IMG/VR virus record: IMGVR_UViG_3300029610_000240
Length of the DNA: 64,000 nt
Direction: 5' to 3' (one strand)
Source: a virus
Lineage: Duplodnaviria > Heunggongvirae > Uroviricota > Caudoviricetes
This document shows, one piece after another, positions 32,731-56,325 of this stretch. Positions within the stretch are counted from its first letter, which is position 1, and every line of letters starts with the position of its first letter. The translations under genes were made by a program, and so were the position numbers. The notes under the pieces were generated by a model. It was given only the letters and a program-made list of their open reading frames with translations. It did not search any database and was not told the origin of the DNA.

Positions 32731-32802
32731 TGATGATGACTTAATTGATGATTTAAGACAAAGTTTTAAAAATATGTAACAGATATATGTAAAAACAAAT
32801 GG
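32731..32802 (+). CRISPR. guide module A: one spacer-like segment plus one repeat
   Basis: Repeat GTTTTAAAAATATGTAACAGATATATGTAAAAACAAATGG (32763..32802), preceded by TGATGATGACTTAATTGATGATTTAAGACAAA. Confidence 0.6.
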
Positions 32803-32804
32803 CA

Positions 32805-32872
32805 GTTACATAATGCGTAAGAATAAGAATGTATCGAATAAGTCTATATAAGTAGAATCTACCAGGTGGTAG
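32805..32872 (+). ncRNA. tracrRNA-like scaffold A
   Basis: Anti-repeat GTTACATAATGCGTAAGAAT pairs with ATATGTAAC of the repeat. Nexus AAGAATGTATCGAAT. Hairpins TCTA/TAGA and CTACC-AGG-TGGTAG (32859..32872). Confidence 0.65.
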
Positions 32873-32904
32873 AAAATATTAAAACTAACAGGAGATAATA
32901 TTTC

Positions 32905-33267
32905 ATGGACACAGAAGATTTAATTGAAAAAAAGGTAAATATCATGATTTTACTATGTATCATGATGATAATGTTGGCTATGCTTCCCCGTATGGTTAAC
33001 CAGGTAATAAAAATTTGTAACTATAAACAAACAGCTTCTCTAAATGTGGATGATAAATATTACCAAAATTCTCGCTGGGGAAACAGCTATAAAATTGTTA
33101 TTAATTGTCATGATGAAGAAAAAGAAATTGCAGTTTCAGAAAAAGAATTTCACGCAATTAAAATCGGAGATAAAGTATTGTGTAATGTATATCGTTCAGC
33201 AAATCAAGTTGTAACTGTAGAATTAAATGAACATTGGAAAGACGCAGGTGACAAGTATGATAACTAA
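32905..33267 (+). CDS. small membrane-anchored protein
   Basis: RBS AGGAGA and one TM helix. Paralogue of 32225..32710. Confidence 0.55.
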   Translation: MDTEDLIEKKVNIMILLCIMMIMLAMLPRMVNQVIKICNYKQTASLNVDDKYYQNSRWGNSYKIVINCHDEEKEIAVSEKEFHAIKIGDKVLCNVYRSANQVVTVELNEHWKDAGDKYDN

Positions 33268-33730
33268 TTCAAAAAAATGGAACGATCCTGATTATTATGA
33301 AGAAAATTTCGTAAATATCATTTACGACAAACTTACAGAAGGAATGGGTTTGTCAAAAGATGAAAGAAAAAGCCTTTTGGATTTGCTTCTTAATCAAAGA
33401 CACGATCCGATGTATTATGACATTATTTGCCAAGAGTTTAAAAATCATTTATTTAAAGAGGAAGTAAGAACTATTTTTAGACTGAATGGTAAGTATTTTG
33501 AGATTCGTTGGATTCGCAAAAATGAATCTTTTGATGAACCAGATGAATTCCCTAATGATCCAATAGAGGTAGTAAAAACAACAAGGGTTGTAAAGGAATG
33601 GGTTGCAAAATCTGATCAGTATAATTTTGATCCCGTTCTTTTAAAGGAGCAAAAAGCAAAATTGCAAAAATATCTAAAAAAAATTGATTGTATTTTGGAT
33701 ATATTAGAAATGGAAAAAATGGATTACTAA
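33257..33730 (+). CDS. hypothetical protein, paralogue of 33806..34147
   Basis: WNDPDYYEENFVNIIYDKLTEGMGLSKDE..KYFEIRW versus WDDRDYYDEHFYDIMYDKITEGMKLTVDE..KYFEIRW. Confidence 0.55.
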   Translation: MITNSKKWNDPDYYEENFVNIIYDKLTEGMGLSKDERKSLLDLLLNQRHDPMYYDIICQEFKNHLFKEEVRTIFRLNGKYFEIRWIRKNESFDEPDEFPNDPIEVVKTTRVVKEWVAKSDQYNFDPVLLKEQKAKLQKYLKKIDCILDILEMEKMDY

Positions 33731-33805
33731 AGCAGACTGAAAAAAATTAGTCATTTATTAGTTTGTAATAATACAAAATAAGATAATTGAAAGGAGAAGC
33801 AGCTA

Positions 33806-34147
33806 ATGATAACAGATCAGGGAAGATGGGACGATAGAGATTACTATGATGAACATTTCTATGACATCATGTATGACAAGATTACGGAAGGAATGAAATT
33901 AACAGTAGATGAAATGGACAACCTTGTAAGTGCAGGATTATTTGATAAGGAAATTGTTCCGCATGAAGAATACTTAGAGGTTAATGATAATAATCAGAAG
34001 ATGAGAACCATTGTTAAGCTTCATGACAAATACTTTGAGATCCGTTGGACTCAATGGACACACAAAGATTCGGAATTTCCAAATGATCCAGTGGAAGTAA
34101 GAAAGAAACCTAAAATTATAGATGACTGGATTCCAGTAGAAAAATAA
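33806..34147 (+). CDS. hypothetical protein, paralogue of 33257..33730
   Basis: RBS AAAGGAGAA. Paralogy as described for 33257..33730. Confidence 0.55.
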   Translation: MITDQGRWDDRDYYDEHFYDIMYDKITEGMKLTVDEMDNLVSAGLFDKEIVPHEEYLEVNDNNQKMRTIVKLHDKYFEIRWTQWTHKDSEFPNDPVEVRKKPKIIDDWIPVEK

Positions 34148-34160
34148 GAGGGGGTTATTT

Positions 34161-34328
34161 ATGAATGAATTAACATTGCTTTCTATTGCAGTGACATTAT
34201 TTGTTATTATTTTGGTGATTGCAGGAGTTTTTACTTTTTTAAAATCAATCGTGCATAGATTAGATGGCGATATATATACAACAGCTGGTATCGTTGCTTT
34301 ATCCATTATGATGGAGAGGAGTGAATAA
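34161..34328 (+). CDS. 55-aa membrane protein
   Basis: ATG behind GAGGGGG. Product MNELTLLSIAVTLFVIILVIAGVFTFL.. Its stop abuts the next start. Below the ORF-track cut-off. Confidence 0.45.
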   Translation: MNELTLLSIAVTLFVIILVIAGVFTFLKSIVHRLDGDIYTTAGIVALSIMMERSE

Positions 34329-35135
34329 ATGAGTTTAGGAATCTACGATGCATTTATTTTTGATAGATCTTACACTATGGAAGAATTGACAAAAAAGATT
34401 GATATTCTAAGAAAAGATGTAAAAAAAACTATTGATATTCAATTACACAAATATGTACTGGAAAAGTTTTTATATTGCTATTTTTTGAGAGAAAATCTCA
34501 GCACCGATGAAATTTTAGAAATAGCGAAGAAAGAAACAGATTATGATAGGAAAATGTGGTTACAAGATACTGCTCAAGGGCAATGGAAATCATTATATCG
34601 AAACATTGTTCTGTATATTCGTGGTAAAGTCAGAAATCAAACAAGGGATAATTTGTTAGAAAGCTTGGATTATAATTATCGAGCTGTCTTGTTTTTGTTT
34701 GCTGTAGAAGGAAAAATACTTTGCGTTTACAGTGGAAATTCGAGTATTATTCCAATTTTGGAACAGCAAAAGTATCTAAGTGATTTTCAATATTGGAACA
34801 ATACAGATCGACCGAAAGAAATTTCAGAAAAAGACTGGGAAAAAAGATATTATCTTTGGGAAAAGGCAATTGGACCAGAGTATTTTCTACCAGATCATGG
34901 TTTCATGGTGAATCTTTATGATACTTCTATGGAATTATTTCGGTCAAATTTTCCATTTTATAAAGAATCTGTTCCAGATTATGATGATATTTTATACCGC
35001 TTAATGAACACGCTATATCCAGATATTGAAGGTGATCAATGGGAAGATAAATGGAATAAGCTAAAAAGGAATTGCCCAAAGATGGATATGGATGGGATTG
35101 GTCAGATTTTTGATCTTACTGAAAGGAGAAGCTAA
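34329..35135 (+). CDS. hypothetical protein
   Basis: 268-aa ORF with RBS GGAGAGGAG. Confidence 0.55.
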   Translation: MSLGIYDAFIFDRSYTMEELTKKIDILRKDVKKTIDIQLHKYVLEKFLYCYFLRENLSTDEILEIAKKETDYDRKMWLQDTAQGQWKSLYRNIVLYIRGKVRNQTRDNLLESLDYNYRAVLFLFAVEGKILCVYSGNSSIIPILEQQKYLSDFQYWNNTDRPKEISEKDWEKRYYLWEKAIGPEYFLPDHGFMVNLYDTSMELFRSNFPFYKESVPDYDDILYRLMNTLYPDIEGDQWEDKWNKLKRNCPKMDMDGIGQIFDLTERRS

Positions 35136-35137
35136 CC

Positions 35138-36085: not shown

Positions 36086-36133
36086 TAAACTTGTCTTTAA
36101 AAAGGAAATAATCATAATAGAAATGAACCAACT

Positions 36134-36277
36134 GTTTTGTAATCGTGTAAAAGCACTTAAATATGCTGTAGAAGATGTTTTGTTACTGTGCAACGGAAAT
36201 ATGTCTAAATGATTTAATTTATTACTACTTTTTATTCCTTTGTTTTGTAACCGTGTAACGGAGACATGTCTAAATGG
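36134..36277 (+). CRISPR. guide module B mini-array (3 repeats)
   Basis: Repeats at 36134..36165 (decayed), 36177..36212 and 36242..36277 (GTTTTGTAACCGTGTAACGGAGACATGTCTAAATGG). Spacers are 11 nt and 29 nt (TTTAATTTATTACTACTTTTTATTCCTTT). Confidence 0.7.
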
Positions 36278-36356
36278 TCAAATTATTTTGCACGGTGCGT
36301 AAAAATAAGAAATTATCGAATAGGCTCGTTAAAACGAGAGCTGCCGTGTGGCAGTA
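36278..36356 (+). ncRNA. tracrRNA-like scaffold B
   Basis: TCAAATTATT linker. Anti-repeat TTGCACGGTGCGTAAAAAT pairs with ACCGTGTAA. Nexus AAGAAATTATCGAAT. Hairpins CTCGT-TAAA-ACGAG and CTGCC-GTGT-GGCAG. Confidence 0.75.
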
Positions 36357-36499
36357 AATCTAAGCTACATCAATTTCAAGATTATAATTTGGGAGGAGAA
36401 AATGTTTGGGAAAATTAATGTTTTTTATTTATTGTTGGCTATATATTTGTATTATTTGTTATATTCTTGCAGCCAAGAACAAGAAAGAAGGTGTAGTGT

Positions 36500-37183: not shown

Positions 37184-37201
37184 GGAAGGGAGCAAAAGAA
37201 A

Positions 37202-38038: not shown

Positions 38039-38340
38039 TAATATAAAGAGGTGTAAAGATGTTTATGTTAGGAACTGGATTTTTCTTTTTTGTTTTCTGA
38101 TTGCAATTGGATATTTTTTGTACAAGTATTTTTCTCATTTTGGAGTTAACATACTTTCTGTAACGTTTCTAATTGTTATGTCCATTTTTTATTATTTCTT
38201 CATTTGTTTTGCCAAAACTTTGGAATGCCGGAGTTAATTCACCAGAACAATTTGTATTGGAATGCCAGAATGAAAAATAAATATCAGAAGAAATAACCTT
38301 TATATTTTTTTGAAATATGATATAATATAGTTGTATTTTT

Positions 38341-43699: not shown

Positions 43700-43847
43700 T
43701 GTATTTTGTGTAAAATGTGTTAAAAACATAATTGCCACAAATGATGATATGTGATACAATTTCATGGTAACATATGAATTGCACTCTGATGCAACGTAGT
43801 ATGTGATAAAGTTATGCTCGCATGAGACGAGATCTGCCGGGTGGCAG
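43700..43847 (+). ncRNA. degenerate tracr-like scaffold (module X)
   Basis: Repeat-like ATTTTGTGTAAAATGTG..ATTGCCACAAATGATG. Shortened nexus GTATGTGATAAAGTTATG. Intact hairpins CTCG-CATGAGA-CGAG (43817..43831) and CTGCC-GGGT-GGCAG (43834..43847). Confidence 0.45.
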
Positions 43848-43856
43848 AGGTAAAAA

Positions 43857-43880
43857 GGCCAGAGAATATCTGGTCTTTTT
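43857..43880 (+). terminator. rho-independent terminator after module X
   Basis: CCAGA-GAATAT-CTGG stem followed by TCTTTTT. Confidence 0.5.
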
Positions 43881-44159
43881 ACTTAAAAATAGAGTATTAT
43901 TTATTAGCATTTTCTGATATAATATAAGCAGTGTTAGAGAGATATATGTAACACCATCGTTTATTAGAAAAGAATATACAGGGAAATTGCATCATTTTAT
44001 ACAATTTCTAAAGCGAGAGGTATTCATATATCTCTCGTTTTTTTTATGTGAAGAGTATTCGATTGAATGCTCTTTTTTCTTTGTAATAATCTAAACGATT
44101 TGTTACAGATCATCTCCTGGCATGAGTAACAAAAAGCTAATATGAAAGGAAGATGCTCT

Positions 44160-45038
44160 ATGATGAAAGAAAAAGGACAATTCAAGAAAAAGTTTGTACA
44201 GAAGATTGCTACAATTATGATGGCAGCAGCTATGGTTGTGAGTGGTGGATTTGGAGTTGCACCAGCAGCGGATCATTCAGTATCCGTATATGCAACAGAT
44301 AATGCATATCGTGGTTATCATGTAACTTCTACGAAGACGGAAAAGAAACCTGCGACCTCATCTACAAAGAAAAGCAAGTTGTCAAAAAATCATGCAAACA
44401 AAACAACAAAAACAGTAACAACTACGACAACTAGCACAGGTTACAAGCATGTTGTTGCAAAAGACACGAAAACTGTAACAAAGACTGTCGTAACTACAAC
44501 AAAGGTATATTACAAAAAGACCTTAACAACAACTGTAAAAAAACAGGTAACTGTAACGACAACAACGATCAATTATCTGAGAAGCGGTAATCCAGATTAT
44601 ATGAAATTAATGGGAACAGTAAATACTCAGATTCCTACAAAGGTGGGGAATGCAATGAAAGCAGATGGATTAAAAGTAGTCCTGAATCCTAATTTATCTT
44701 ATGATGGAGTATATTCTGCTTCCAGAAATTCCATTGAAATGAAAAATAATGTAGATTATGGTTTTATGCATGAAATTGGACACTATGTGGATCGTAAGAC
44801 AGGATATGTTTCAGGCAGTACAGAATTTAAAAATATCTTTAATTCTGAAAAATCCAAATACAAAGGATTTTATTCTGACTGGAATTTAGATAGTGGAAAT
44901 TATGCAAGAACAAGCACTTCTGATTATTTTGCAGAATGTTTTAGAGATTACTACTTTAGTGCAAACTCCAGAAGCAAGTTAAAAGCAAATTGTCCTAAAT
45001 CTTATAGTTTTATTCAGAAAACAATCAATAAGTTCTAA
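44160..45038 (+). CDS. secreted zinc metalloprotease, anthrax-lethal-factor/PPEP (M34)-like domain
   Basis: Signal peptide, T/K-rich linker, MHEIGHYVD and downstream SDYFAECFRDYYFS. Confidence 0.6.
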   Translation: MMKEKGQFKKKFVQKIATIMMAAAMVVSGGFGVAPAADHSVSVYATDNAYRGYHVTSTKTEKKPATSSTKKSKLSKNHANKTTKTVTTTTTSTGYKHVVAKDTKTVTKTVVTTTKVYYKKTLTTTVKKQVTVTTTTINYLRSGNPDYMKLMGTVNTQIPTKVGNAMKADGLKVVLNPNLSYDGVYSASRNSIEMKNNVDYGFMHEIGHYVDRKTGYVSGSTEFKNIFNSEKSKYKGFYSDWNLDSGNYARTSTSDYFAECFRDYYFSANSRSKLKANCPKSYSFIQKTINKF

Positions 45039-45131: not shown

Positions 45132-45959
45132 ATGGAAAACAAAAATAACATAAGCAAGTTAACAAAAATCTTATTTGTTGCACTAGCAATGGGAATGATC
45201 TTGATTTCCCCATATCAATTATGCAATGTGGCAGCAGCTGATAAATACTATGGATACCAGAAGAAAACAAAGAGTGTAAAAACAAAGATAACAGCATCTA
45301 AAAAGAAAGTACGTATAAAAAAGAAATATAGAGGAACAAGAACCACAAAAAATGTTGAAAGCAAATGGTCTGATTCTTATAAATATACATATGGAGATGC
45401 AAAAAAGATACATATAAAGACAGTTATAACCACTCAAAAAACATATCACGGATATTTTATTACGACAAAGCGAAATATTAAAACGACAACTACAGAAAAT
45501 AAAATCAATTTTGTTCGCAATCAGAAGAAAGTTAGTTTTAATGGCCGAATTCCAAGTAATGTACAGAAACAATTGAATAGTGAAAAAATACAGATCGTCA
45601 TAAATCCAAAATTGAAACATAATGGAATCTTTTCTCTGAAAGATAAGAAAATATCCATAAAATATAACTCCGACTATGTTTTATTACATGAAATAGGACA
45701 TTTTGTAAATTACAAAAATGGTGATGCTGCACATAGTTCAGAATTTTATAATATCTACTTAAAAGAAAGAAGTAAATATCGTGGATTCTATAACGATTAT
45801 TATGAAAAGTTAGACCTTGGAAAATATGAAAGAACTACTCCTGCGGAATATTTTGCCGGAGCATATCGGGATTATTATTTTAGCAAAGATTCTCGGAATC
45901 GATTAAAAAAATATTGTCCAAATACTTATAATTTTATTACTAAATACCATTTTATTTAA
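45132..45959 (+). CDS. secreted zinc metalloprotease, paralogue of 44160..45038
   Basis: Signal peptide, LHEIGHFVN and AEYFAGAYRDYYFS. Confidence 0.6.
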   Translation: MENKNNISKLTKILFVALAMGMILISPYQLCNVAAADKYYGYQKKTKSVKTKITASKKKVRIKKKYRGTRTTKNVESKWSDSYKYTYGDAKKIHIKTVITTQKTYHGYFITTKRNIKTTTTENKINFVRNQKKVSFNGRIPSNVQKQLNSEKIQIVINPKLKHNGIFSLKDKKISIKYNSDYVLLHEIGHFVNYKNGDAAHSSEFYNIYLKERSKYRGFYNDYYEKLDLGKYERTTPAEYFAGAYRDYYFSKDSRNRLKKYCPNTYNFITKYHFI

Positions 45960-46126: not shown

Positions 46127-49100
46127 GTGCAGAATGGATTTTTAGGAATAACTGTTAGTAGTGAACAGGTTGGTTGGGCAGTTACAAATCCCAAATATGA
46201 GTTAGAACGTGCATCTCGAAAAGATTTATGGGGTGTAAGGCTTTTTGATAAAGCAGAAACAGCGGAAGATCGAAGAATGTTCCGTACAAACAGACGATTA
46301 AATCAGAGAAAAAAGAACAGAATACATTATCTTAGAGATATTTTCCATGAGGAAGTAAATCAAAAAGATCCTAACTTTTTTCAGCAATTAGATGAAAGCA
46401 ATTTCTGTGAAGATGATCGTACTGTAGAGTTTAATTTTGATACTAATCTTTATAAGAATCAGTTTCCAACAGTGTATCATTTAAGAAAATATCTAATGGA
46501 AACAAAAGATAAACCAGATATTCGTCTGGTATACTTAGCTTTTTCAAAATTTATGAAAAATCGAGGACATTTCTTATACAAAGGAAATCTTGGAGAGGTT
46601 ATGGACTTTGAAAATTCCATGAAAGGCTTTTGTGAAAGTTTAGAGAAATTTAATATTGACTTCCCTACATTATCAGATGAACAGGTAAAAGAAGTCCGAG
46701 ATATCTTATGTGATCATAAAATTGCTAAAACTGTGAAAAAGAAAAACATCATTACTATTACAAAAGTAAAAAGTAAGACAGCAAAAGCATGGATTGGACT
46801 GTTTTGTGGTTGCAGCGTTCCTGTTAAAGTATTATTTCAGGATATCGATGAAGAAATTGTAACGGATCCAGAAAAAATCTCATTTGAAGATGCTTCTTAT
46901 GATGATTGTATTGCAAATATTGAAAAGGGTGTCGGTATTTATTATGAAGCTATTGTTTCTGCAAAGATGCTTTTTGACTGGTCTATCCTGAATGAAATTT
47001 TAGGTGACCATCAGTTATTAAGTGATGCAATGATCGCAGAATACAATAAGCATCATGATGATTTAAAGCGTTTACAGAAGATCATTAAAGGAACTGGCAG
47101 TAGAGAATTATATCAGGATATCTTTATTAATGATGTTTCTGGAAATTATGTATGCTACGTTGGTCATGCAAAAACAATGAGTAGTGCAGATCAGAAACAG
47201 TTTTATACATTTTTAAAAAATCGATTAAAAAATGTGAATGGTATTTCATCAGAAGATGCAGAATGGATTGATACAGAGATTAAAAACGGTACTTTACTAC
47301 CAAAACAGACAAAACGTGATAACAGTGTTATTCCGCATCAATTACAGTTAAGGGAATTTGAATTAATTCTTGATAACATGCAGGAAATGTATCCATTCTT
47401 AAAAGAAAACAGAGAAAAATTATTAAAAATCTTCAATTTCGTTATTCCTTATTATGTAGGTCCGCTAAAGGGCGTTGTAAGAAAAGGAGAGAGTACAAAC
47501 TGGATGGTGCCTAAAAAAGATGGTGTGATTCATCCATGGAATTTCGATGAAATGGTAGACAAAGAAGCGTCTGCGGAATGTTTTATTTCCCGAATGACAG
47601 GAAATTGTAGTTATTTATTTAATGAAAAAGTTCTTCCAAAGAATTCTCTTCTTTATGAGACATTTGAGGTATTAAATGAGCTAAATCCATTAAAGATCAA
47701 TGGAGAACCTATCAGCGTGGAATTAAAACAGAGAATTTATGAACAGCTTTTCTTGACAGGGAAAAAAGTTACAAAAAAATCTCTGACAAAATATCTTATC
47801 AAGAATGGCTATGACAAAGATATTGAATTATCAGGTATTGATAATGAATTTCACAGCAATCTAAAATCTCATATTGATTTTGAGGATTACGATAATCTAT
47901 CTGATGAAGAAGTTGAACAGATTATTCTTAGAATTACAGTATTTGAAGATAAGCAGCTGTTAAAAGATTATTTAAATCGCGAGTTTGTAAAGCTCTCTGA
48001 GGATGAGAGAAAACAGATTTGCTCATTATCTTATAAAGGATGGGGAAACTTATCAGAAATGCTATTAAACGGTATTACTGTAACAGATTCCAATGGTGTA
48101 GAAGTTTCTGTAATGGATATGCTGTGGAATACAAACTTAAATCTGATGCAGATCTTAAGTAAGAAATATGGATATAAAGCAGAAATCGAACATTACAATA
48201 AAGAACATGAAAAAACCATTTATAATCGTGAAGATTTGATGGATTATTTAAATATTCCACCGGCTCAGCGTAGGAAGGTAAATCAGCTGATTACGATAGT
48301 AAAATCTCTCAAAAAGACATATGGAGTTCCAAATAAGATTTTCTTCAAAATAAGCAGAGAACATCAGGATGATCCAAAGAGAACTTCATCCAGAAAAGAA
48401 CAGCTAAAATATTTATACAAATCCTTAAAATCAGAAGATGAAAAACATCTTATGAAAGAGCTTGATGAATTGAACGATCATGAATTATCCAATGATAAAG
48501 TTTATCTTTATTTTCTACAGAAAGGACGCTGCATTTATTCTGGCAAGAAATTAAATCTTTCAAGATTAAGAAAATCTAATTATCAGAATGATATTGACTA
48601 CATTTATCCATTATCTGCAGTAAATGATCGTTCTATGAATAATAAGGTATTAACGGGAATCCAGGAGAATCGAGCAGACAAGTATACCTATTTTCCAGTT
48701 GATTCAGAAATTCAGAAAAAAATGAAGGGATTTTGGATGGAACTGGTTCTGCAGGGATTTATGACAAAGGAGAAATACTTCCGATTATCCAGAGAAAATG
48801 ATTTTTCAAAGAGCGAACTTGTTAGCTTTATTGAACGTGAAATTTCAGATAATCAGCAAAGTGGAAGAATGATTGCTTCTGTATTACAGTATTATTTCCC
48901 TGAATCAAAGATTGTATTTGTAAAAGAAAAGCTGATTTCTTCCTTTAAGAGGGATTTCCATTTAATTAGTAGTTATGGTCACAATCATTTACAAGCTGCA
49001 AAAGATGCTTATATTACGATTGTAGTTGGAAATGTATATCATACAAAATTTACAATGGACCCAGCAATCTATTTTAAGAATCATAAGAGAAAAGATTATG

Positions 49101-50065
49101 ATCTGAACCGATTATTCTTAGAAAATATCAGCAGAGATGGACAGATTGCATGGGAAAGTGGTCCATATGGGTCAATTCAGACGGTTCGAAAAGAATATGC
49201 TCAAAACCATATTGCTGTTACAAAAAGAGTCGTGGAAGTAAAAGGCGGCTTATTTAAGCAGATGCCATTAAAAAAAGGACATGGCGAATATCCATTAAAA
49301 ACCAATGATCCTAGATTTGGCAATATCGCACAGTATGGAGGGTATACGAATGTCACAGGTTCCTATTTTGTATTAGTAGAATCAATGGAGAAAGGGAAAA
49401 AACGTATTTCTTTAGAATATGTTCCAGTATATCTTCATGAGCGTTTAGAGGATGATCCTGGACATAAACTGTTAAAAGAATATCTGGTTGATCACAGAAA
49501 ACTTAATCATCCAAAGATTTTACTTGCAAAAGTAAGAAAAAACTCATTACTTAAGATTGACGGTTTTTATTATCGTTTAAATGGTCGAAGTGGAAATGCT
49601 CTTATCCTTACAAATGCAGTGGAATTGATCATGGATGACTGGCAGACAAAAACAGCAAACAAGATTTCTGGATACATGAAACGCAGAGCTATTGATAAGA
49701 AAGCAAGGGTTTATCAAAATGAATTCCATATTCAGGAATTAGAACAGCTTTATGATTTTTATTTAGATAAATTAGAGAATGGTGTTTATAAAAATCGTAA
49801 GAATAATCAGGCTGAATTAATTCACAACGAAAAAGAACAGTTTATGGAACTCAAGACAGAAGATCAGTGTGTATTATTGACTGAGATTAAAAAGCTTTTT
49901 GTATGTTCTCCAATGCAGGCAGACCTTACATTGATTGGTGGCAGCAAACACACAGGAATGATTGCTATGTCAAGCAATGTTACAAAAGCAGATTTTGCAG
50001 TCATTGCGGAAGATCCTTTAGGACTTAGAAACAAAGTAATTTATTCTCATAAAGGTGAGAAGTAA
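46127..50065 (+). CDS. cas9: Cas9 homologue (type II-A-like size) with substituted RuvC and HNH catalytic residues
   Basis: GTG start 7 nt after AAGGAGGA. Conserved: bridge helix RRMFRTNRRLNQRKKNRIHYLRDIF, FPTVYHLRKYL, NRGHFLYKG, IPHQLQL, IPYYVGPL, PWNFDEMVDKEASAECFISRMT, YKGWGNLS. Catalytic columns: LGITVSSEQVGWAV (D10 is T), IFFKISREHQ (E762 is K), DIDYIYPLS (H840 is Y), QAAKDAYITIVVG (H983 is A, D986 kept). Confidence 0.9.
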   Translation: MQNGFLGITVSSEQVGWAVTNPKYELERASRKDLWGVRLFDKAETAEDRRMFRTNRRLNQRKKNRIHYLRDIFHEEVNQKDPNFFQQLDESNFCEDDRTVEFNFDTNLYKNQFPTVYHLRKYLMETKDKPDIRLVYLAFSKFMKNRGHFLYKGNLGEVMDFENSMKGFCESLEKFNIDFPTLSDEQVKEVRDILCDHKIAKTVKKKNIITITKVKSKTAKAWIGLFCGCSVPVKVLFQDIDEEIVTDPEKISFEDASYDDCIANIEKGVGIYYEAIVSAKMLFDWSILNEILGDHQLLSDAMIAEYNKHHDDLKRLQKIIKGTGSRELYQDIFINDVSGNYVCYVGHAKTMSSADQKQFYTFLKNRLKNVNGISSEDAEWIDTEIKNGTLLPKQTKRDNSVIPHQLQLREFELILDNMQEMYPFLKENREKLLKIFNFVIPYYVGPLKGVVRKGESTNWMVPKKDGVIHPWNFDEMVDKEASAECFISRMTGNCSYLFNEKVLPKNSLLYETFEVLNELNPLKINGEPISVELKQRIYEQLFLTGKKVTKKSLTKYLIKNGYDKDIELSGIDNEFHSNLKSHIDFEDYDNLSDEEVEQIILRITVFEDKQLLKDYLNREFVKLSEDERKQICSLSYKGWGNLSEMLLNGITVTDSNGVEVSVMDMLWNTNLNLMQILSKKYGYKAEIEHYNKEHEKTIYNREDLMDYLNIPPAQRRKVNQLITIVKSLKKTYGVPNKIFFKISREHQDDPKRTSSRKEQLKYLYKSLKSEDEKHLMKELDELNDHELSNDKVYLYFLQKGRCIYSGKKLNLSRLRKSNYQNDIDYIYPLSAVNDRSMNNKVLTGIQENRADKYTYFPVDSEIQKKMKGFWMELVLQGFMTKEKYFRLSRENDFSKSELVSFIEREISDNQQSGRMIASVLQYYFPESKIVFVKEKLISSFKRDFHLISSYGHNHLQAAKDAYITIVVGNVYHTKFTMDPAIYFKNHKRKDYDLNRLFLENISRDGQIAWESGPYGSIQTVRKEYAQNHIAVTKRVVEVKGGLFKQMPLKKGHGEYPLKTNDPRFGNIAQYGGYTNVTGSYFVLVESMEKGKKRISLEYVPVYLHERLEDDPGHKLLKEYLVDHRKLNHPKILLAKVRKNSLLKIDGFYYRLNGRSGNALILTNAVELIMDDWQTKTANKISGYMKRRAIDKKARVYQNEFHIQELEQLYDFYLDKLENGVYKNRKNNQAELIHNEKEQFMELKTEDQCVLLTEIKKLFVCSPMQADLTLIGGSKHTGMIAMSSNVTKADFAVIAEDPLGLRNKVIYSHKGEK

Positions 50066-50106: not shown

Positions 50107-50259
50107 GCTTTGGAACTGCGTAGAACATGATATGTCTTATGGCTAAAAGAATTACAGGTGCATATTTTGAACTGTGTAAAACATGGCATATGGGAGAATT
50201 GGCAACGACTGGAACAGAACACAGTTTTGAAACTGTATAAAACATGACATGTCTTATGG
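50107..50259 (+). CRISPR. guide module C mini-array (3 repeats), starting 42 nt after the cas9 stop
   Basis: Repeats at 50107..50142 (6 mismatches), 50164..50193 (30 nt, decayed) and 50224..50259 (GTTTTGAAACTGTATAAAACATGACATGTCTTATGG). Spacers: 21 nt CTAAAAGAATTACAGGTGCAT and 30 nt GAGAATTGGCAACGACTGGAACAGAACACA. Confidence 0.75.
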
Positions 50260-50336
50260 TTCAAATTATTTATACAGTACGTGAAAATAAGAAATTATCG
50301 AATAAACTCGTTTAGACGAGAACTGCTAGAGGCAGT
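50260..50336 (+). ncRNA. tracrRNA-like scaffold C
   Basis: Anti-repeat TTTATACAGTACGTGAAAAT gives a 10-bp perfect pairing with ACTGTATAAA. Nexus AAGAAATTATCGAAT. Hairpins CTCGT-TTAG-ACGAG and CTGC-TAGAG-GCAG (50323..50335). Confidence 0.8.
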
Positions 50337-50352
50337 AATTGCAGAAAATGTC

Positions 50353-50961: not shown

Positions 50962-51117
50962 ATTTTGAGAAATGATTGCAAATGTGATCGTAGCGTACCT
51001 TACTTCACAGCTTAGTTTTGGAACTATGTAAAATCAAATGATTGCAAATGGGCAGAGAGAAAATTTGAAAAATTGTCTGTGTTTTGGAACTATGTAAAAT
51101 CAAATGATTGCAAATGG
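50962..51117 (+). CRISPR. guide module D mini-array (3 repeats)
   Basis: Repeats at 50962..50985 (internally deleted), 51015..51051 and 51081..51117 (GTTTTGGAACTATGTAAAATCAAATGATTGCAAATGG). Spacers: GATCGTAGCGTACCTTACTTCACAGCTTA and GCAGAGAGAAAATTTGAAAAATTGTCTGT. Confidence 0.8.
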
Positions 51118-51193
51118 TCAAAGTAATTGCATGGCGTGTAAAAATAAGAATTTATCGAAATAATTTGCTCCGGCGAAATCTGCAAGATGCAGA
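51118..51193 (+). ncRNA. tracrRNA-like scaffold D
   Basis: TCAAAGTAA linker. Anti-repeat TTGCATGGCGTGTAAAAAT pairs with CTATGTAA through two G:U. Nexus AAGAATTTATCGAAAT. Hairpins TTTGC-TCCG-GCGAA and TCTGC-AAGA-TGCAGA. Confidence 0.75.
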
Positions 51194-51197
51194 AATC

Positions 51198-51265
51198 AAG
51201 CTGATCGATGCTTTACATATTTATCTATTTCAATATTTCTTCAACCATATACATTGATCAGCTTT
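51198..51265 (+). terminator. long-loop inverted repeat with AGCTGATC core (possible terminator)
   Basis: AAGCTGATCGATG pairs with CATTGATCAGCTT (13 bp, one G:U) around a 42-nt loop. A related element lies at 54054..54131. Confidence 0.4.
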
Positions 51266-51290
51266 AATAAAAAGAATTAAAATTACGAAA

Positions 51291-51445
51291 ATAAAATTGA
51301 ATGATTCCAATGGATAGTCGAAAAAGAATTGGATAGTCGACGGGTTTTAGAATAGTGTAAAATTGAATGATTCTAAGGGTTAGATACTCCACTAGATAGC
51401 AAAGTACTTGTTTTAGAATAGTGTAAAATTAAATGATTCTAAGGG
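51291..51445 (+). CRISPR. guide module E mini-array (3 repeats)
   Basis: Repeats at 51292..51313 (3' half only), 51344..51379 (GTTTTAGAATAGTGTAAAATTGAATGATTCTAAGGG) and 51410..51445. Spacers: ATAGTCGAAAAAGAATTGGATAGTCGACGG and TTAGATACTCCACTAGATAGCAAAGTACTT. Confidence 0.8.
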
Positions 51446-51528
51446 GTCAAATAGATTCTATACAATGCGTGAAAATAAGAAACTTATCGAACAAACCTGT
51501 GTAGGAAACAGGAACTGCCGAGGGCAGT
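51446..51528 (+). ncRNA. tracrRNA-like scaffold E
   Basis: GTCAAATAGAT linker, anti-repeat TCTATACAATGCGTGAAAAT, nexus AAGAAACTTATCGAAC. Hairpins CCTGT-GTAGGAA-ACAGG and CTGCC-GAG-GGCAG (51515..51527). Confidence 0.75.
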
Positions 51529-51823
51529 AAAAATAAAAAGCATATTTTTATTATGTTTTATTTTATGATGAAGAGGTGGATGATGGTTCTATCTCTGTTT
51601 TTGAGAAAATGGATGCATTGCAAAATGCAACAATCTTAGAAGTACAAATACATATTGATGACTTAAAAGATAAATTGGAAGAAGTAAAATTTACTCTTAA
51701 AATATCAGGTTTGTATTTGAAGAAGATAATTTTATGGATTCTTATTATAAATCTTATACGTTACCGATTGTATATCACAAAAACTATTTATTAAGTATTA
51801 ACAATGATAAGGAATAACAATAA

Positions 51824-53755
51824 ATGGAAATAGATTACAGAAAAGAATTAAATAAGAGTCAATATGAAGCTGTTACAACGACAGAAGGACCAGTCCTAAT
51901 CCTTGCCGGTGCCGGAACTGGCAAAACTCGTTGTATGGTATATCGTGTGGCATATCTGATTGAAAAAGGCGTGTCACCCAATAATATCTTATTATTGACC
52001 TTTACAAATAAAGCAGCAAATGAAATGAAGCAAAGGGCAGCAGATATGCTTGATGAACGATGTAGTCAAATTACTGCATGTACATATCATTCATTCTGTG
52101 CAAAGATGCTTCGCAAATATTCACAACTGATTGGAATTCAATCAGATTATACAATTATTGATCCGGGAGATTGTGCAGATATCATATCGATCATCGAAAC
52201 AGAACACGGTATGGATAAAGTAAAAGATTTTCCAAGATCATCTCAACTGGTATCAGCACATAGCAAAGCCTTAAATACGAATCAGTCATTAGAGGATACT
52301 TTGTTTGATATGCTCGGTAAATGGAAGTATATGGAAATCGAAAGATTCATTCCAGATATAAAGAAAATCTTAGCGGATTATCAATCATACAAAAAACAAA
52401 ACAACATGATGGATTATGATGATTTGCTAATCAATTTTATATCTGTATTGAAAAGAAACCCTTCTATAAAGAATAAATTAGCTGATATTTATCAGTATAT
52501 TATGATCGACGAATATCAGGATTCTAATTATTTACAGGAAAAGATTATTTTTATGTTACGTGAAAAGAATCGTAACTTAGCAGTGGTAGGTGATGATTAC
52601 CAATGCATCTATGGATTTAGAGGAAGTATGGTAGAAAATATCATTAATTTTCCACAAAAGATGTCCGGATGTAAAGTTGTTTACTTAACACAGAATTATC
52701 GCAGCAATCAAGAGATCATGGATTTATCCAATATTGTTATGAAAAAACATTCACTGGAAGGTTTTTTTAAAAAGCTTGTCGCAACTCATGTGGCCAATAT
52801 TCAGCCATTGCTAGTTCGATCAGAGGACGAGGGCGAAGAAGCTTCTTATATTTTAAATAAGATTATGGCATTACATGATGAAGAAGAGATTCCGTATCAT
52901 GAAATTTGTGTTCTTGAAAGAAGTTCTTATCATTCTGTAAGACTAGAAGCACTTTTAAATAAAATGAAAATCCCATATGACAAATATGGTGGAATGAAGT
53001 TTTTTGATTATGATCATATCAAAAACTTCTTATGCTTTTTGCGATGTCAGATAAATCCACATGATGAAATTGCGTGGTTTCGACTATTAAAGTTATTTGA
53101 TGGTATTGGAAATGTTTATGCCAGAAATATCGCAGCAACATGTAAAACTCTTGGATTAGAGGGACTTGTTCAACACAAATACATAAAAAGAAAATTTCAG
53201 CCGGATCTTGAAAATTTAAAGAGTTTTATTGAAAAGCTTAATGATCAAGATTTTCAGATCGAATTGCAAAGCATTAAATCATTTTATTCACGTTTAATGG
53301 ACATTACATTAATGCTGATGAAAACATCGGAGAAGAAACGTAGGGAGCTTGCTAGAGCAAATAAACAAGCGGTCCGCGATTTTGATACACTGATTGAAAT
53401 GGCAGATGGATATGATTCTCCAGTGACATTTCTGGAAGAAATAATGCTTGAAGCCAGTCCTCAGAAAGAGGAAGAGGAAGATCGAATGGTTATATCTACA
53501 ATTCATTCCGCAAAAGGCTTAGAGTTTCACTCTGTTTTTGTTATGAACTGCGTAGATACAATGTTTCCATCTACAGATAAAGATCAGATTGGAACAGTAG
53601 AAGATAACGAAGAGTTGAGATGCTTCTATGTGGCAATAACACGGGCAAAAGAACGATTATTTTTAATGGCACCGAAATATATAGCCAAATTTGGATGTGT
53701 TGAAGAGGGAATTATCTCCCATTTTATTAGTGATGTTTTTCAAGTAAAGGAGTAA
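51824..53755 (+). CDS. UvrD/PcrA-type SF1 DNA helicase
   Basis: Walker A AGAGTGKT, motif II IMIDEYQDSN, QNYRSNQEI, late STIHSAKGLEF and FYVAITRAKERL. Confidence 0.85.
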   Translation: MEIDYRKELNKSQYEAVTTTEGPVLILAGAGTGKTRCMVYRVAYLIEKGVSPNNILLLTFTNKAANEMKQRAADMLDERCSQITACTYHSFCAKMLRKYSQLIGIQSDYTIIDPGDCADIISIIETEHGMDKVKDFPRSSQLVSAHSKALNTNQSLEDTLFDMLGKWKYMEIERFIPDIKKILADYQSYKKQNNMMDYDDLLINFISVLKRNPSIKNKLADIYQYIMIDEYQDSNYLQEKIIFMLREKNRNLAVVGDDYQCIYGFRGSMVENIINFPQKMSGCKVVYLTQNYRSNQEIMDLSNIVMKKHSLEGFFKKLVATHVANIQPLLVRSEDEGEEASYILNKIMALHDEEEIPYHEICVLERSSYHSVRLEALLNKMKIPYDKYGGMKFFDYDHIKNFLCFLRCQINPHDEIAWFRLLKLFDGIGNVYARNIAATCKTLGLEGLVQHKYIKRKFQPDLENLKSFIEKLNDQDFQIELQSIKSFYSRLMDITLMLMKTSEKKRRELARANKQAVRDFDTLIEMADGYDSPVTFLEEIMLEASPQKEEEEDRMVISTIHSAKGLEFHSVFVMNCVDTMFPSTDKDQIGTVEDNEELRCFYVAITRAKERLFLMAPKYIAKFGCVEEGIISHFISDVFQVKE

Positions 53756-53791
53756 TTTATAGTGAAATGCTTAAATTATGTTGTCAATGTG

Positions 53792-53965
53792 GATTTGAAT
53801 CCATGTAAAAATGTAAAGCAAATGATTCCAAATGGCAATCTTCTCGAATTGTCGTGTAGGCAAAGTTTTGAAACCATGTAAAAAAATGATTCCAAATGGG
53901 TATGCATTGGTGTTTGAAGCGTTTGTGTGTTTTGGAACCATGTAAAAGCAAATGATTCCAAATGG
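53792..53965 (+). CRISPR. guide module F mini-array (3 repeats)
   Basis: Repeats at 53792..53835 (internal duplication), 53865..53899 (2-nt deletion) and 53929..53965 (GTTTTGGAACCATGTAAAAGCAAATGATTCCAAATGG). Spacers: CAATCTTCTCGAATTGTCGTGTAGGCAAA and GTATGCATTGGTGTTTGAAGCGTTTGTGT. Confidence 0.8.
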
Positions 53966-54043
53966 TTAAAAGCAGATTACATGGTGTGTCAAAATAAGAA
54001 CTTATCGAATAGATCTATATAAATGGAATCTGCCAGGTGGCAG
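53966..54043 (+). ncRNA. tracrRNA-like scaffold F
   Basis: Anti-repeat TTACATGGTGTGTCAAAAT gives a 9-bp perfect pairing with ACCATGTAA. Nexus AAGAACTTATCGAAT. Hairpin 2 CTGCC-AGGT-GGCAG (54030..54043). Hairpin 1 is weak and resembles that of scaffold A. Confidence 0.75.
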
Positions 54044-54053
54044 AAAAAAACTG

Positions 54054-54131
54054 AAAAAGCTGATCAATAATAACTGTTGTTACCATAATATTAATTTATG
54101 TTTTTGTATTTTGTCTATTGATCAGCTTTTT
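54054..54131 (+). terminator. 16-bp perfect long-loop inverted repeat with AGCTGATC core
   Basis: AAAAAGCTGATCAATA pairs perfectly with TATTGATCAGCTTTTT around a 46-nt loop. Confidence 0.5.
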
Positions 54132-54133
54132 GC

Positions 54134-55411
54134 ATGAAAATGAAAGTTATAAATATGGCAATGAAGAAAGTCGGTGATGATAAATTGAGAAGAAAAGTAG
54201 TCAGTTTTTTACTTGTTACACTTATGATGGCAACGATCACTCCTGTACATGCAGATGAGGTGTCAGAACCAACAACTGCTGCGACAGAAGTTACAACAAC
54301 AGAAACGAAGCCGACTACGACAGAAAAAAAAGAAACAACTCATCATAAGGAAAAAACAGTAAAAAAAGATAAGAAAACAAAAAAGAAAAATACTAAAAAA
54401 GATGGGAAAAAGAAAAGTAAACAAAAAGAAAAATCTAAAAAAAAGGAAAACAAAAAATCAACAATTCCGATGCCTAAACGGGCTGTAAAGAAAAAAGGTT
54501 GTGATACTGTACAAAAGAAGATTGTAAAAATGCAATCAAAGATTAAAAAGTTGCAGAAAGAACAAAAAAATATCCGAAAAGAGATCAAAAAAGAAAATAA
54601 TAAAAAAGAAGCACTGCAGCGATTTTATCAGCAATATCCTACAGAGCGTGAAGCAACTATGAAACTGCGAGGACAAAAGATTACACCTCTTACTAAGATT
54701 TCAGAGGAAGACGATGCATTAAGAAATAGATTATTCAGTTTAGCTAATACATTTCATGACGATCAACTACGTAAAATTGCCTCTGAGTACGTCTTTGGCG
54801 TAAGAGATCTTAATTTTGAAGACCTGTTAAACGAGGATGATACCATTGACCTTAATACATATTTAAAAGGCAAATATATTGCTCCAACGCAGAATATGCA
54901 GATAGGAATTAAAAATAAGGATCAAGAAATTCAAAAATTAAAGAAACAGATCAAAGAGGAAAAGAAAACCAGATTTTTTGATCCGAAAAACGTAAATTCT
55001 ATTAGCAATATTACAGTTGATGATGCTAAAAAGATGTTGTCTGGAACGCAATTATATCCAGAAGCAGAAGCTTTTGTTAAAGCAGAAAGAATTCATCATG
55101 TAAATGCAGTCTTTTTAATGGGAATTGCTGCACATGAAAGTGCCTGGGGAACAAGCCGGCGTGCCAGAGAAGATAATAATTTAACTGGATATGGAGTTTA
55201 CTCAGATAGTGCAAAGGGCATCAATAAGACAAGCAAAGAAGAAGGATTATTAGCCACCGCTGAGACATTGCACGAACGATACTTAACCCCTGGAGGCAGC
55301 TATTACGAAGGAACTTCCGTTGCTGATGTAAATAAACATTATTGTGTCGGAAATGAATGGGCCGGAGCGGTAGTTGGTTATGCTTATCAATTAATGAATA
55401 AACTAAATTAG
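54134..55411 (+). CDS. secreted Lys-rich protein with C-terminal GH73-type glucosaminidase domain
   Basis: Signal peptide and K/E-rich low-complexity linker. AVFLMGIAAHESAWGTSRRAREDNNLTGYGV is the FlgJ/GH73 catalytic region. Confidence 0.75.
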   Translation: MKMKVINMAMKKVGDDKLRRKVVSFLLVTLMMATITPVHADEVSEPTTAATEVTTTETKPTTTEKKETTHHKEKTVKKDKKTKKKNTKKDGKKKSKQKEKSKKKENKKSTIPMPKRAVKKKGCDTVQKKIVKMQSKIKKLQKEQKNIRKEIKKENNKKEALQRFYQQYPTEREATMKLRGQKITPLTKISEEDDALRNRLFSLANTFHDDQLRKIASEYVFGVRDLNFEDLLNEDDTIDLNTYLKGKYIAPTQNMQIGIKNKDQEIQKLKKQIKEEKKTRFFDPKNVNSISNITVDDAKKMLSGTQLYPEAEAFVKAERIHHVNAVFLMGIAAHESAWGTSRRAREDNNLTGYGVYSDSAKGINKTSKEEGLLATAETLHERYLTPGGSYYEGTSVADVNKHYCVGNEWAGAVVGYAYQLMNKLN

Positions 55412-55543
55412 ATATCATCAAAGAGGTTTTGGTTAACTAAAGGTTGATTATCGGTATATCATTGTTCGGTGTCTGTAGACAGCATTTTTTCAAATCTATA
55501 GTTGTTATAAAATAAGAGACACTTTCATGTATAGTGGAGTTTA

Positions 55544-55570
55544 GTTTCAGAAGTTTATAAAAACAGATAA
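55544..55570 (+). CRISPR. guide module G: single divergent repeat
   Basis: GTTTCAGAAGTTTATAAAAACAGATAA, preceded by the candidate guide GAGACACTTTCATGTATAGTGGAGTTTA. Confidence 0.5.
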
Positions 55571-55580
55571 CTATTAATGA

Positions 55581-55658
55581 TTATCTGTTTCATGGATTGT
55601 GTAAAAATAAGCAAATTAGCGAATATGCTCGTTGAAACGAGAGCTGTTAGATAACAGC
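55581..55658 (+). ncRNA. tracrRNA-like scaffold G
   Basis: TTATCTGTTT pairs perfectly with AAACAGATAA across a 10-nt loop. GATTGTGTAAAAAT, nexus variant AAGCAAATTAGCGAAT. Hairpins CTCGT-TGAA-ACGAG and GCTGTTA-GA-TAACAGC. Confidence 0.6.
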
Positions 55659-55710
55659 TAAAAATGTAACTATATAAATTAATTTGTAAATTATAGGGAG
55701 GACTATTTTA

Positions 55711-55866
55711 GTGAAACACGGTAAAGTTCCAACAAGAAATCAAAAAGAACTTATGTTAAAAAATAATCTTAATCCGAAAGAATGGCTGGTTGTAAAGAAA
55801 ATGGCGGATGGATTTGAGATTGTTAATAGAGAAAATGAAGCAGATCGTAAATTTCTGTATTGTTAA
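55711..55866 (+). CDS. 51-aa small protein
   Basis: GTG start behind GGGAGGA. Product MKHGKVPTRNQKELMLKNNLNPKEWLVVKK.. resembles small conserved proteins of Firmicutes mobile elements, recalled from memory. Below the ORF-track cut-off. Confidence 0.45.
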   Translation: MKHGKVPTRNQKELMLKNNLNPKEWLVVKKMADGFEIVNRENEADRKFLYC

Positions 55867-55875
55867 GGTGAAATA

Positions 55876-56091
55876 ATGATGGATATTTACACAAGATTAT
55901 TGATGATGGATATTATGATATCGGCAGTAGCTATTATGGTAAATATCTTAGAAAATTGTCCGATTAACGGTAAAATACACAATATTTCAAGAATTTTAAT
56001 CATATCTAGTATTGCTGCAGACATTATCTTACTTTTAGGAATTGTCAATACGTTCATCTCATACAGTATCCTGTATTCTTATTTTAAATAA
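55876..56091 (+). CDS. small membrane protein
   Basis: 71 aa with two hydrophobic helices. Its stop overlaps the first, partial repeat of module H. Confidence 0.45.
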   Translation: MMDIYTRLLMMDIMISAVAIMVNILENCPINGKIHNISRILIISSIAADIILLLGIVNTFISYSILYSYFK

Positions 56092-56094
56092 GAT

Positions 56095-56249
56095 ACAGAA
56101 GAATCATTGTCGATGTTAAACATATTATGTGAAACATTATTGTCAGGCTTTAGAAGTCTATAAAACAGAATCATTGTCAATGAGATCAAATTCTTTATGA
56201 CAACGCAATACAGCTTTAGAAGTCTATAAAACAGAATCATTGTCAATGG
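56095..56249 (+). CRISPR. guide module H mini-array (3 repeats)
   Basis: Repeats at 56095..56115 (3' half only), 56147..56183 and 56213..56249 (GCTTTAGAAGTCTATAAAACAGAATCATTGTCAATGG). Spacers: TTAAACATATTATGTGAAACATTATTGTCAG and GATCAAATTCTTTATGACAACGCAATACA. Confidence 0.8.
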
Positions 56250-56325
56250 TCAAATAAGCAGACTGCGTAAAAATAAGAATTTTATCGATATTGCTCGTGT
56301 AGTCGAGAACTGCCAAGTGGCAGCA
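56250..56325 (+). ncRNA. tracrRNA-like scaffold H
   Basis: TCAAATAAG linker, anti-repeat CAGACTGCGTAAAAAT, nexus AAGAATTTTATCGAT. Hairpins CTCG-TGTAGT-CGAG and CTGCC-AAGT-GGCAG (56310..56323). The next gene's RBS follows 18 nt later. Confidence 0.75.

Follow-up and report, generated by a model that had tools for sequence, protein, structure and literature searches.

The 64,000-nucleotide stretch of IMG/VR virus record IMGVR_UViG_3300029610_000240 (hereafter the window) contains part of an integrative mobile element from a human-gut Lachnospiraceae host. It carries a derived type II CRISPR system of II-A ancestry, which lacks two defining features of the type, active nucleases and the adaptation module. 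The system combines a Cas9 homologue, predicted to be catalytically dead in both nuclease domains (dCas9), with eight dispersed guide modules, each carrying its own tracrRNA-like scaffold (tracrRNA, trans-activating CRISPR RNA). Taken as a whole, the account towards which we lean, with modest confidence, is that of a system that binds DNA under RNA guidance without cleaving it and obtains its spacers in trans; its core, a binding-only ribonucleoprotein, is more likely than any specific biological role. In what follows, related loci used for comparison bear L numbers and Cas9 homologue proteins bear P numbers.

The sequence-only reading of this DNA had recognised one cas9 gene. The product is indeed a Cas9 homologue according to Pfam, but that reading missed the loss of both nuclease activities predicted here, and a catalytically dead Cas9 changes what the system can do.

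46127..50065, + strand: predicted nuclease-dead Cas9, II-A-derived, 1312 amino acids; Pfam Cas9_REC 1.5e-138, Cas9_PI 2e-57, bridge helix and HNH_4

Its homology to Cas9 is further illustrated by matches to PADLOC Cas9 (1.3e-209) and to the structure 9jwk_A of the PDB (7e-216). Compared with SpCas9, the RuvC residues D10, E762 and H983 are replaced by T, K and A, respectively, and the HNH residue H840 by Y, while D986, N854 and N863 are retained. As judged from the alignment, the protein would thus keep its RNA-binding, DNA-recognition and protospacer-adjacent motif (PAM)-interacting parts, and would have lost the catalytic residues of RuvC and HNH. The same signature extends over a clade of dead Cas9 proteins (P0001-P0021, 71-100% identity to the window protein): all aligned members carry D10T, E762K (where the residue is not deleted) and H983A/S/Y, and H840Y was found in every aligned HNH-bearing member but P0020, which keeps the histidine. 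By comparison, all catalytic residues are intact in every aligned relative at about 42% identity. The HNH domain is altogether absent from 16 clusters (96-99% identity), through at least seven different in-frame junctions at about residues 740-900 (P0003-P0018; for instance L001 10001-13471 and L003 10001-13456), which indicates repeated, independent losses. At the DNA level, only 1 nt of microhomology was seen at the two junctions examined. Guide modules are retained in the elements whose dCas9 has lost HNH. The ratio of nonsynonymous to synonymous substitution rates (dN/dS) amounts to 0.06-0.10 against orthologues, for dS values up to about 2, and to 0.03-0.06 in the HNH region of full-length copies. 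Such low values indicate that the dCas9 gene is under purifying selection rather than decaying.

The eight scaffolds that the sequence-only reading had placed on the + strand were all recovered. Indeed, a whole-window Rfam scan returned eight matches to RAGATH-30 (RF03055), all on the + strand and scoring 64.7-78.6 bits, above the Rfam gathering score of 59.5 bits taken as the threshold for membership. The starts given by the earlier reading lie 10-23 nt upstream of these matches because they included the anti-repeat. RAGATH-30 is an orphan Rfam family that comprises the 59-nt tail only and has no stated function. The motif GYGTRAAAATAAG, with at most one mismatch, occurs eight times where 0.83 occurrences are expected, a number reached by none of 100 shuffles, and it was found nowhere else in the window, neither outside 32.8-56.3 kb nor on the minus strand. 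The modules are as follows, scaffold coordinates being those of the Rfam matches and R1 denoting the covariance model built in this analysis.

32733..32880, + strand: module A, with a presumed guide (32733-32762), a single repeat/anti-repeat hairpin and scaffold 32817-32875; Rfam 71.4 bits, R1 88 bits, and fold
36134..36362, + strand: module B, with a degenerate repeat, repeat 36177-36212, spacer 36213-36241, terminal repeat 36242-36277 and scaffold 36299-36357
43708..43885, + strand: relic, with decayed anti-repeat and nexus, and with hairpin 1, hairpin 2 and an intrinsic terminator kept; upstream of the ATLF and dCas9 genes
50107..50343, + strand: module C, with a repeat, 22-nt spacer 50143-50164, a degenerate repeat, spacer 50195-50223, terminal repeat 50224-50259 and scaffold 50281-50338
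50963..51200, + strand: module D, with a degenerate repeat, spacer 50987-51014, repeat 51015-51051, spacer 51052-51080, terminal repeat 51081-51117 and scaffold 51138-51195
51278..51535, + strand: module E, with a degenerate repeat, spacer 51314-51343, repeat 51344-51379, spacer 51380-51409, terminal repeat 51410-51445 and scaffold 51469-51530
53792..54051, + strand: module F, with a degenerate repeat, spacer 53836-53864, repeat 53865-53899, spacer 53900-53928, terminal repeat 53929-53965 and scaffold 53988-54046
55515..55665, + strand: module G, a compact unit resembling a single-guide RNA (sgRNA), with a single repeat and scaffold 55601-55660
56080..56331, + strand: module H, with a degenerate repeat, spacer 56116-56146, repeat 56147-56182, spacer 56183-56212, terminal repeat 56213-56248 and scaffold 56267-56326

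The repeats of 36-37 nt described before each scaffold are real. Modules B, C, D, E, F and H contain two or three of them, the most upstream one being usually degenerate, and one or two spacers; modules A and G contain one repeat each. Spacers had been put at about 29-30 nt and most of those in the window do measure 28-31 nt, but the first spacer of module C (C1) has only 22 nt. Module C lies directly 3' of the dCas9 stop codon, and such a module was present in every orthologous locus examined. As for the decayed copy proposed around position 43800, it matches R1 weakly (43708-43855, 30 bits, E=0.009), yet its two 3' hairpins and its true terminator are conserved with compensatory changes in L007 and L009 (72-81% identity).

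On folding, the terminal repeat of every module forms pairs with the stretch directly 5' of the scaffold. A lower stem, in which GUUUU faces AAAAU, is followed by a bulge and an upper stem of 7 bp; then come a short nexus hairpin (AUAAGAAAUUAU) and two more hairpins. An engineered Cas9 sgRNA is built in the same way, its loop being represented here by the 3' half of the repeat. The first reading spoke of complete CRISPR RNA (crRNA) and tracrRNA units; the modules are not such pairs acting in trans, but mini-arrays whose last repeat is fused to the tracrRNA as in a natural sgRNA. Repeats vary between modules and the anti-repeats vary to match. Over 61 distinct sequences from the window and related elements, standard pairs occupied 95.1% of cells, against 28-47% when the partners were slid, and compensatory changes were found in 17 of 22 pairs, including six of the seven pairs of the repeat:anti-repeat upper stem; no shuffle reached these values, which come from an alignment that was itself fitted to the covariance model. 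Homology links the tail to the tracrRNA of the nearest active II-A loci, where the nexus, hairpin 1 and hairpin 2 are found as well. In two of these loci, L070 and L206, the tracrRNA is encoded upstream of cas9 and consists of an anti-repeat, then AAAUAA(C/A)(G/A)AUUUAU(C/U)(G/C)AA, then two hairpins. The scaffolds, first described as tracr-like, are thus genuine derivatives of a tracrRNA, joined in cis to the repeat. Right after the terminal repeat, a G(G/A)TCAAA(T/A) junction was found in 47 of 50 repeat families, including modules B-F and H of the window, and is far better conserved than the neighbouring repeat and anti-repeat. It is missing only from modules A and G, the two types that never form arrays. 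A leader-like role of this junction in spacer insertion is a matter of speculation. A promoter scan gave no signal above shuffled background.

The type II character of the system is illustrated by the REC lobe, bridge helix and PAM-interacting domain of its Cas9, by arrays of repeats and unique spacers, and by a tracrRNA whose anti-repeat is complementary to the repeat, here present in cis and covarying. By contrast, csn2, the gene that defines subtype II-A, was found neither in the window nor in the module loci: using queries from an active relative, tblastn gave no match to cas1, cas2 or csn2, whether in the window or across the 1.5 Mb of loci that bear modules, a result that covers these sequences, the element itself extending past the window. 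The nearest active relatives of the window Cas9 (about 40-42% identity) belong to canonical II-A loci with csn2; L070 and L206, for example, hold cas9-cas1-cas2-csn2 and an array. By inspection, the module anti-repeats showed no good match to the repeat of an abundant active relative. MT835488.1, deposited as a phage and encoding a Cas9 35% identical, was considered as a relative and rejected: its Cas9 is an ordinary active one, accompanied by cas1-cas2-csn2, and modules are absent.

A covariance-model scan of related genomes, one of the checks proposed with the first reading, yielded modules around orthologous dead Cas9 genes. Six modules were counted in L001, seven in L003 and three each in L005, L007 and L009. 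A pattern scan of metagenomes and IMG/VR extended the family to many human-gut contigs, with 164 module matches scored with the covariance model. All Cas9s found in module-bearing loci bear the dead signature, and dCas9 is included in 20 of the 40 module loci of at least 8 kb, the other loci being pieces of longer contigs. In 185,579 species-representative genomes, 57 matches to the scaffold pattern were obtained, all attributable to chance and none scoring with the covariance model, and a Cas9 protein scan of the same genomes found nothing. Beside these loci, six contigs (L163, L082, L159, L201, L178 and L197) carry 4-6 modules in 8-14 kb with no nucleotide similarity to the window and no Cas9 within the available stretch; L163 encodes accessory SecA2/SecY2-like, NA37 and HD-domain proteins. 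This suggests that more divergent carrier elements exist.

Arrays were then extracted upstream of about 190 full-length modules out of the 200 found. They comprise 50 distinct terminal repeats and 109 non-redundant spacers, 84 of which are exactly 30 nt long, with 0-5 spacers per array and up to 14 different arrays per module family. The D repeat family has 18 copies in 13 distinct arrays, and the F family 17 copies in 14 distinct arrays. Elements with 97-99%-identical flanks carry different spacers: those of modules D and F differ among the window, L001 and L003, in the case of F despite 99%-identical flanks. Modules B and H have an additional scaffold-proximal spacer in the window, missing from L003 for B and from both L001 and L003 for H. 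Other guides are stable. Module C has the same spacers in the window, L001 and L003, and the guides of modules A and G are invariant across copies. Module A was found in four copies, none with extra repeats, and module G in ten copies with one layout throughout and no array; at the position of module G, L007 has a 5-spacer array. It was also observed that independent spacers of different module families overlap the same putative targets, e.g., ...GG(A/T)(A/G)CTAATCCTTTA(C/T)T..., ...AGAAGT(CA/TG)ACTTCT(G/A)TTCCCAAGGAAG and a pair encoding AHI(D/E)R. These overlapping spacers seem to differ at third codon positions, a hint that a small number of conserved genes may be preferred as targets. The peptide motifs encoded by the recurrent spacers gave matches only within arrays, and exact IMG/VR scans with two recurrent-target consensus patterns returned no target.

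Two spacers could be assigned a target. One from L003 matches the gut phage NatCom_43819 over 29 of 30 nt, in a small open reading frame (ORF) that lies close downstream of a gene for a Rha regulator and overlaps part of the DNA polymerase gene. The other, from L007, matches over 28 of 30 nt the release factor 1 gene prfA in GenBank MT837920.1, both mismatches being silent (TDHRIKLTL is encoded either way). This entry (L203, 1-5832) bears the label "Bacteriophage sp." but is a piece of a bacterial chromosome and no phage; its products are GlmM, a nucleotidyl transferase, PrfA, PrmC and a DUF1385 protein. Each of the two guides is antisense to its target gene, the orientation that blocks elongation in established CRISPR interference (CRISPRi). 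Within the window, no self-target was found with up to 7 mismatches over the full spacer length or with 14-nt seeds allowing one mismatch, and no spacer matched the 1.5 Mb of related loci outside the arrays. With guide seeds of 10-13 nt, the window, including the region upstream of dCas9, gave a single T-rich 13-mer. It corresponds to the last 13 nt of the module B spacer B1 (TTTTTATTCCTTT), which recur at 12099-12111 on the minus strand, inside the + strand ORF 11325-12146, and are followed by GTTGG; being T-rich, this match is possibly due to chance. In S. thermophilus, Wei, Terns and Terns reportedly observed in 2015 that a nuclease-dead Cas9 still supports adaptation and then accumulates self-derived spacers; by analogy, a chromosomal spacer would fit such an accumulation here.

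According to the binding-only account, each module transcript would be a ready-made sgRNA that loads dCas9 with the adjacent spacer, and spacers further upstream could also rely on the anti-repeat of the module, either in trans or through another fold. The complex of dCas9 and guide would bind matching PAM-flanked DNA and stay there without cutting, thereby blocking transcription or replication of the target. Binding without cutting has precedents in engineered CRISPRi, type IV-A and Cas12m/Cas12c. Since the spacers are 30 nt long and turn over while the element has no cas1, cas2 or csn2, they would most likely be inserted in trans by the II-A adaptation proteins of the host; spacer acquisition in trans has been demonstrated for type IV-A3. 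Because nothing would be cut, spacers against chromosomal genes could be tolerated. The divergence of repeats and anti-repeats between modules may prevent recombination and deletions among the dispersed copies. A bolder version, which we rate as rather improbable, is that of a natural, adaptive, multiplexed CRISPRi machine on gut conjugative elements, made of a long-maintained dead Cas9 and self-contained sgRNA cassettes. In that machine, the host integrase would capture spacers at the leader-like GGTCAAAT junction beside the tracr-fused repeat, and the newest spacer would land directly in the single-guide position. Without cutting, the element could also maintain guides aimed at prfA or other chromosomal genes, and in this way tune its host or hold it hostage, while phages and rivals would be silenced too.

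Several results weigh against this account. Targets were identified for only 2 of the 109 spacers, and the spacer search that had been recommended, although it produced the phage and prfA matches, gave no plasmid. Exact IMG/VR scans with five spacers or seeds returned no target, one of them matching only the arrays themselves, and no PAM was derivable. Array pairs differed at the scaffold-proximal end in 19 cases and at the 5' end in nine, i.e., with mixed polarity. The spacers have no strand or purine bias, hence no sign of selection for a repressing orientation. A terminator scan revealed no U-tract terminator on the + strand of the scaffolds, and the cis duplex is short (about 12 bp and a bulge), which bears on the use of upstream spacers. 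Finally, a spacer of the prfA type, aimed at an essential gene, would be costly if repression were strong.

The gene context helps to weigh the alternatives. Nearly all window genes share one strand, and a Tn916-type Xis and a tyrosine integrase stand at the element end in the relatives L001, L005 and L009; together, these features fit an integrative conjugative element. The element is probably conjugative, something we can only infer since transfer genes are absent from the 64-kb window: no relaxase, coupling protein or type IV secretion gene was found among the ORFs scanned there, and the element continues past the left edge. In the conserved order, the 5' part comprises a papain-like protease with a lectin domain, one or more ATLF-domain proteins, dCas9 and sometimes a UvrD helicase. 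The 3' part comprises a glucosaminidase, DUF6906 and a protein of 217-229 amino acids, followed in L001, L005 and L009 by the Tn916-type genes, and then by unrelated host genes. The host flank encodes an aldo/keto reductase 97% identical to an Agathobacter rectalis protein. The genes among which the modules are scattered, initially taken as unrelated, are thus the cargo of one integrative mobile element with conserved synteny. Three of them deserve mention.

44142-45038 and 45132-45959, + strand: two ATLF-domain genes, directly upstream of dCas9; Pfam ATLF 4.7e-17 and 4.5e-11
51824..53755, + strand: UvrD/PcrA-type helicase gene, between modules E and F; Pfam UvrD-helicase 4.6e-74

At least one ATLF gene lies directly upstream of dCas9 in all orthologous loci having upstream sequence; a role of these genes in the system would be putative. 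The UvrD gene is present in the window, L001, L003 and L005 and missing from L007 and L009; its product could be a partner of dCas9 or the replication helicase of the element. The end of the window element carries an HTH_17 Xis-like ORF (56984-57238) and a different integrase (57770-59011, minus strand). The recombination module has indeed been swapped among near-identical elements (window 57000-59011, L001 20290-21934, L003 20248-20837): L001 ends with Tn916 Xis and Int, the HTH_17 Xis-like ORF occurs in the window and L003, and the zinc-ribbon tyrosine integrase on the opposite strand occurs in the window only, the similarity with L003 stopping at about 57597.

The alternative that survives best, unlikely as we judge it, is an anti-CRISPR decoy, in which the dead Cas9 and the tracr variants would soak up host crRNAs, or the modules would occupy the host Cas9, so that the element is spared. 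Sequestration of host crRNAs has been proposed for a phage II-C Cas9 with a dead RuvC, its own tracrRNA and an adjacent helicase (PMC10910872; PMC12669027; PMC11656645), and sequestration of Cas9 for phage-encoded compact sgRNAs (10.64898/2026.06.01.729453). Eight different anti-repeats could cover several host repeat types, the likely hosts have related II-A systems, and here too a helicase gene is nearby. However, the modules bear full-length spacers of their own, with turnover, and their anti-repeats covary with the repeat in cis and mismatch the repeat of the abundant active relative. Moreover, the conserved PAM-interacting domain is unneeded by a pure RNA sponge.

Somewhat less credible still is a gene regulator, in which the fixed guides of modules A, C, E and G would steer dCas9 to promoters of the host or of the element, in the manner of tracr-L, scaRNA and TldR, the variable spacers being a by-product. 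The invariant guides of A and G, the module C spacers shared by the window, L001 and L003, and the spacer matching a host housekeeping gene are in line with it, as are the nuclease-dead RNA-guided repressors known on mobile elements (PMC10705468). Nevertheless, no guide of any module matches the 64-kb window (up to 7 mismatches, or seeds of 10-13 nt), the T-rich B1 13-mer excepted, or the 1.5 Mb of related loci.

Guide-directed recruitment, whereby dCas9 would bring the UvrD helicase, an ATLF protein or the xis/int machinery to a target (guided integration), appears very improbable. Nuclease-dead effectors that recruit partners do exist, e.g., CRISPR-associated transposases and type IV-A with DinG (PMC11656645), and the dCas9 gene is in every case at a distance of a few kb from the xis/int end and adjacent to ATLF genes, with the UvrD gene among the modules in four loci. 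On the other hand, L007 and L009 are without UvrD, no protospacer was found in the host flanks at the element end (window, L001, L003, L005), and elements sharing most guides occupy different sites. Lastly, a decaying II-A remnant without present function, suggested by the loss of catalytic residues and adaptation genes and by the often degenerate upstream repeats, is disfavoured to the point of deserving hardly any credence, given the dN/dS of 0.06-0.10 over a dS of about 2, an RNA structure maintained by compensatory change, and a layout conserved over 71-100%-identical orthologues while spacers turn over.

The system of the window differs from each of its known counterparts. With canonical II-A loci such as the Clostridium/Lachnospiraceae loci L070 and L206, it shares about 40-42% Cas9 identity, 36-nt repeats starting with GTTT, 30-nt spacers and a tracr tail with a nexus and two hairpins. 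Unlike them, its nuclease sites are predicted dead or its HNH is deleted, and cas1, cas2 and csn2 are missing. Instead of one array and one tracrRNA in trans, it has eight dispersed mini-arrays with the tracr fused in cis to the last repeat, and the 3' halves of its repeats have diverged and are not palindromic with the 5' end. S. pyogenes tracr-L and the phage vsgRNAs, the latter also on a mobile element, likewise unite a crRNA-like part and the tracr in one sgRNA-like transcript. They come in one copy, whose 11-14-nt guide directs an active host Cas9 to the cas9 promoter for binding without cutting, whereas full 30-nt spacers, arrays, many units and a dead Cas9 of the element's own are found here. 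The modules are not of this kind, because their spacers are long, they have their own Cas9 and no guide matches the dCas9 upstream region. The phage II-C2 Cas9 with a dead RuvC (Altae-Tran 2023) is similar: it too is nuclease-impaired, resides on a mobile element, has a tracrRNA of its own and a helicase gene in the vicinity, and lacks adaptation genes. That system, however, is of type II-C, has an active HNH and no CRISPR array, and is SNF2-associated and found in phages, whereas the present one is II-A-derived, has an HNH that is dead or deleted (except in P0020), arrays with turnover and UvrD nearby, and resides on an integrative element. The presence of arrays, the dead HNH and the different lineage therefore exclude a variant of it. 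Finally, the plasmid-borne types IV-A3 and V-M (Cas12m) resemble the system in function, not by membership, as nuclease-free systems on mobile elements that interfere by binding; IV-A3 moreover has no adaptation genes, a helicase as partner and spacers obtained in trans. The effectors of these types are unrelated, they have no tracrRNA, and their arrays are enriched in plasmid targets, of which none was seen here.

Engineered dCas9 with sgRNA arrays is a central tool of modern biology. In the literature found, it is treated as a human invention. The only nuclease-impaired natural Cas9 encountered there is the phage II-C variant, with a dead RuvC and an active HNH (PMC12669027; PMC10910872). 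In the searchable literature, neither a fully dead natural Cas9 nor a dispersed set of cis-tracr mini-arrays was found described, and no text was found that names RAGATH-30 or links RAGATH motifs to tracrRNA or Cas9. The organisation, which is conserved around orthologous Cas9 genes, is to that extent undescribed, in line with the sequence-only reading, which had not seen it described; its scaffold was already an Rfam family. If the binding-only account is true, nature would have built a fully dead Cas9, sometimes without HNH, together with several natural single guides per element, and would have long maintained it on mobile elements common in the human gut. This would constitute a binding-only branch of type II, beside types IV, V-M, V-C and V-K, and would give a function to an orphan RNA motif, while providing natural sgRNA scaffolds of compact size, and ΔHNH Cas9 designs that selection has already put to the test. 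Questions would then open on spacer capture in trans, on the tolerance of self-targeting, and on programmable silencing directed against phages, rivals and hosts.

The upstream part of the window encodes LPXTG/Cna_B surface proteins, a restriction-modification pair and an AbiLi-like ATPase. The last two form a defence cluster within the element (12249-16359), consisting of the AbiLi-like AAA ATPase (12249-13451), an Eco57I-type N6 methylase (13979-15370) and a BsuBI/PstI-type restriction endonuclease (15367-16359). Further on, a HEARO (ωRNA) match (19765-19994, 112 bits) is immediately followed by an IscB-type ORF with RRXRR and HNH (424 amino acids), the pair, at 19765-21319, representing a second RNA-guided system on the element. 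A TnpB/IS605 OrfB-type gene (23580-24698, minus strand; OrfB_IS605, Cas12f1-like TNB and a helix-turn-helix) adds a third RNA-guided nuclease family to the window.

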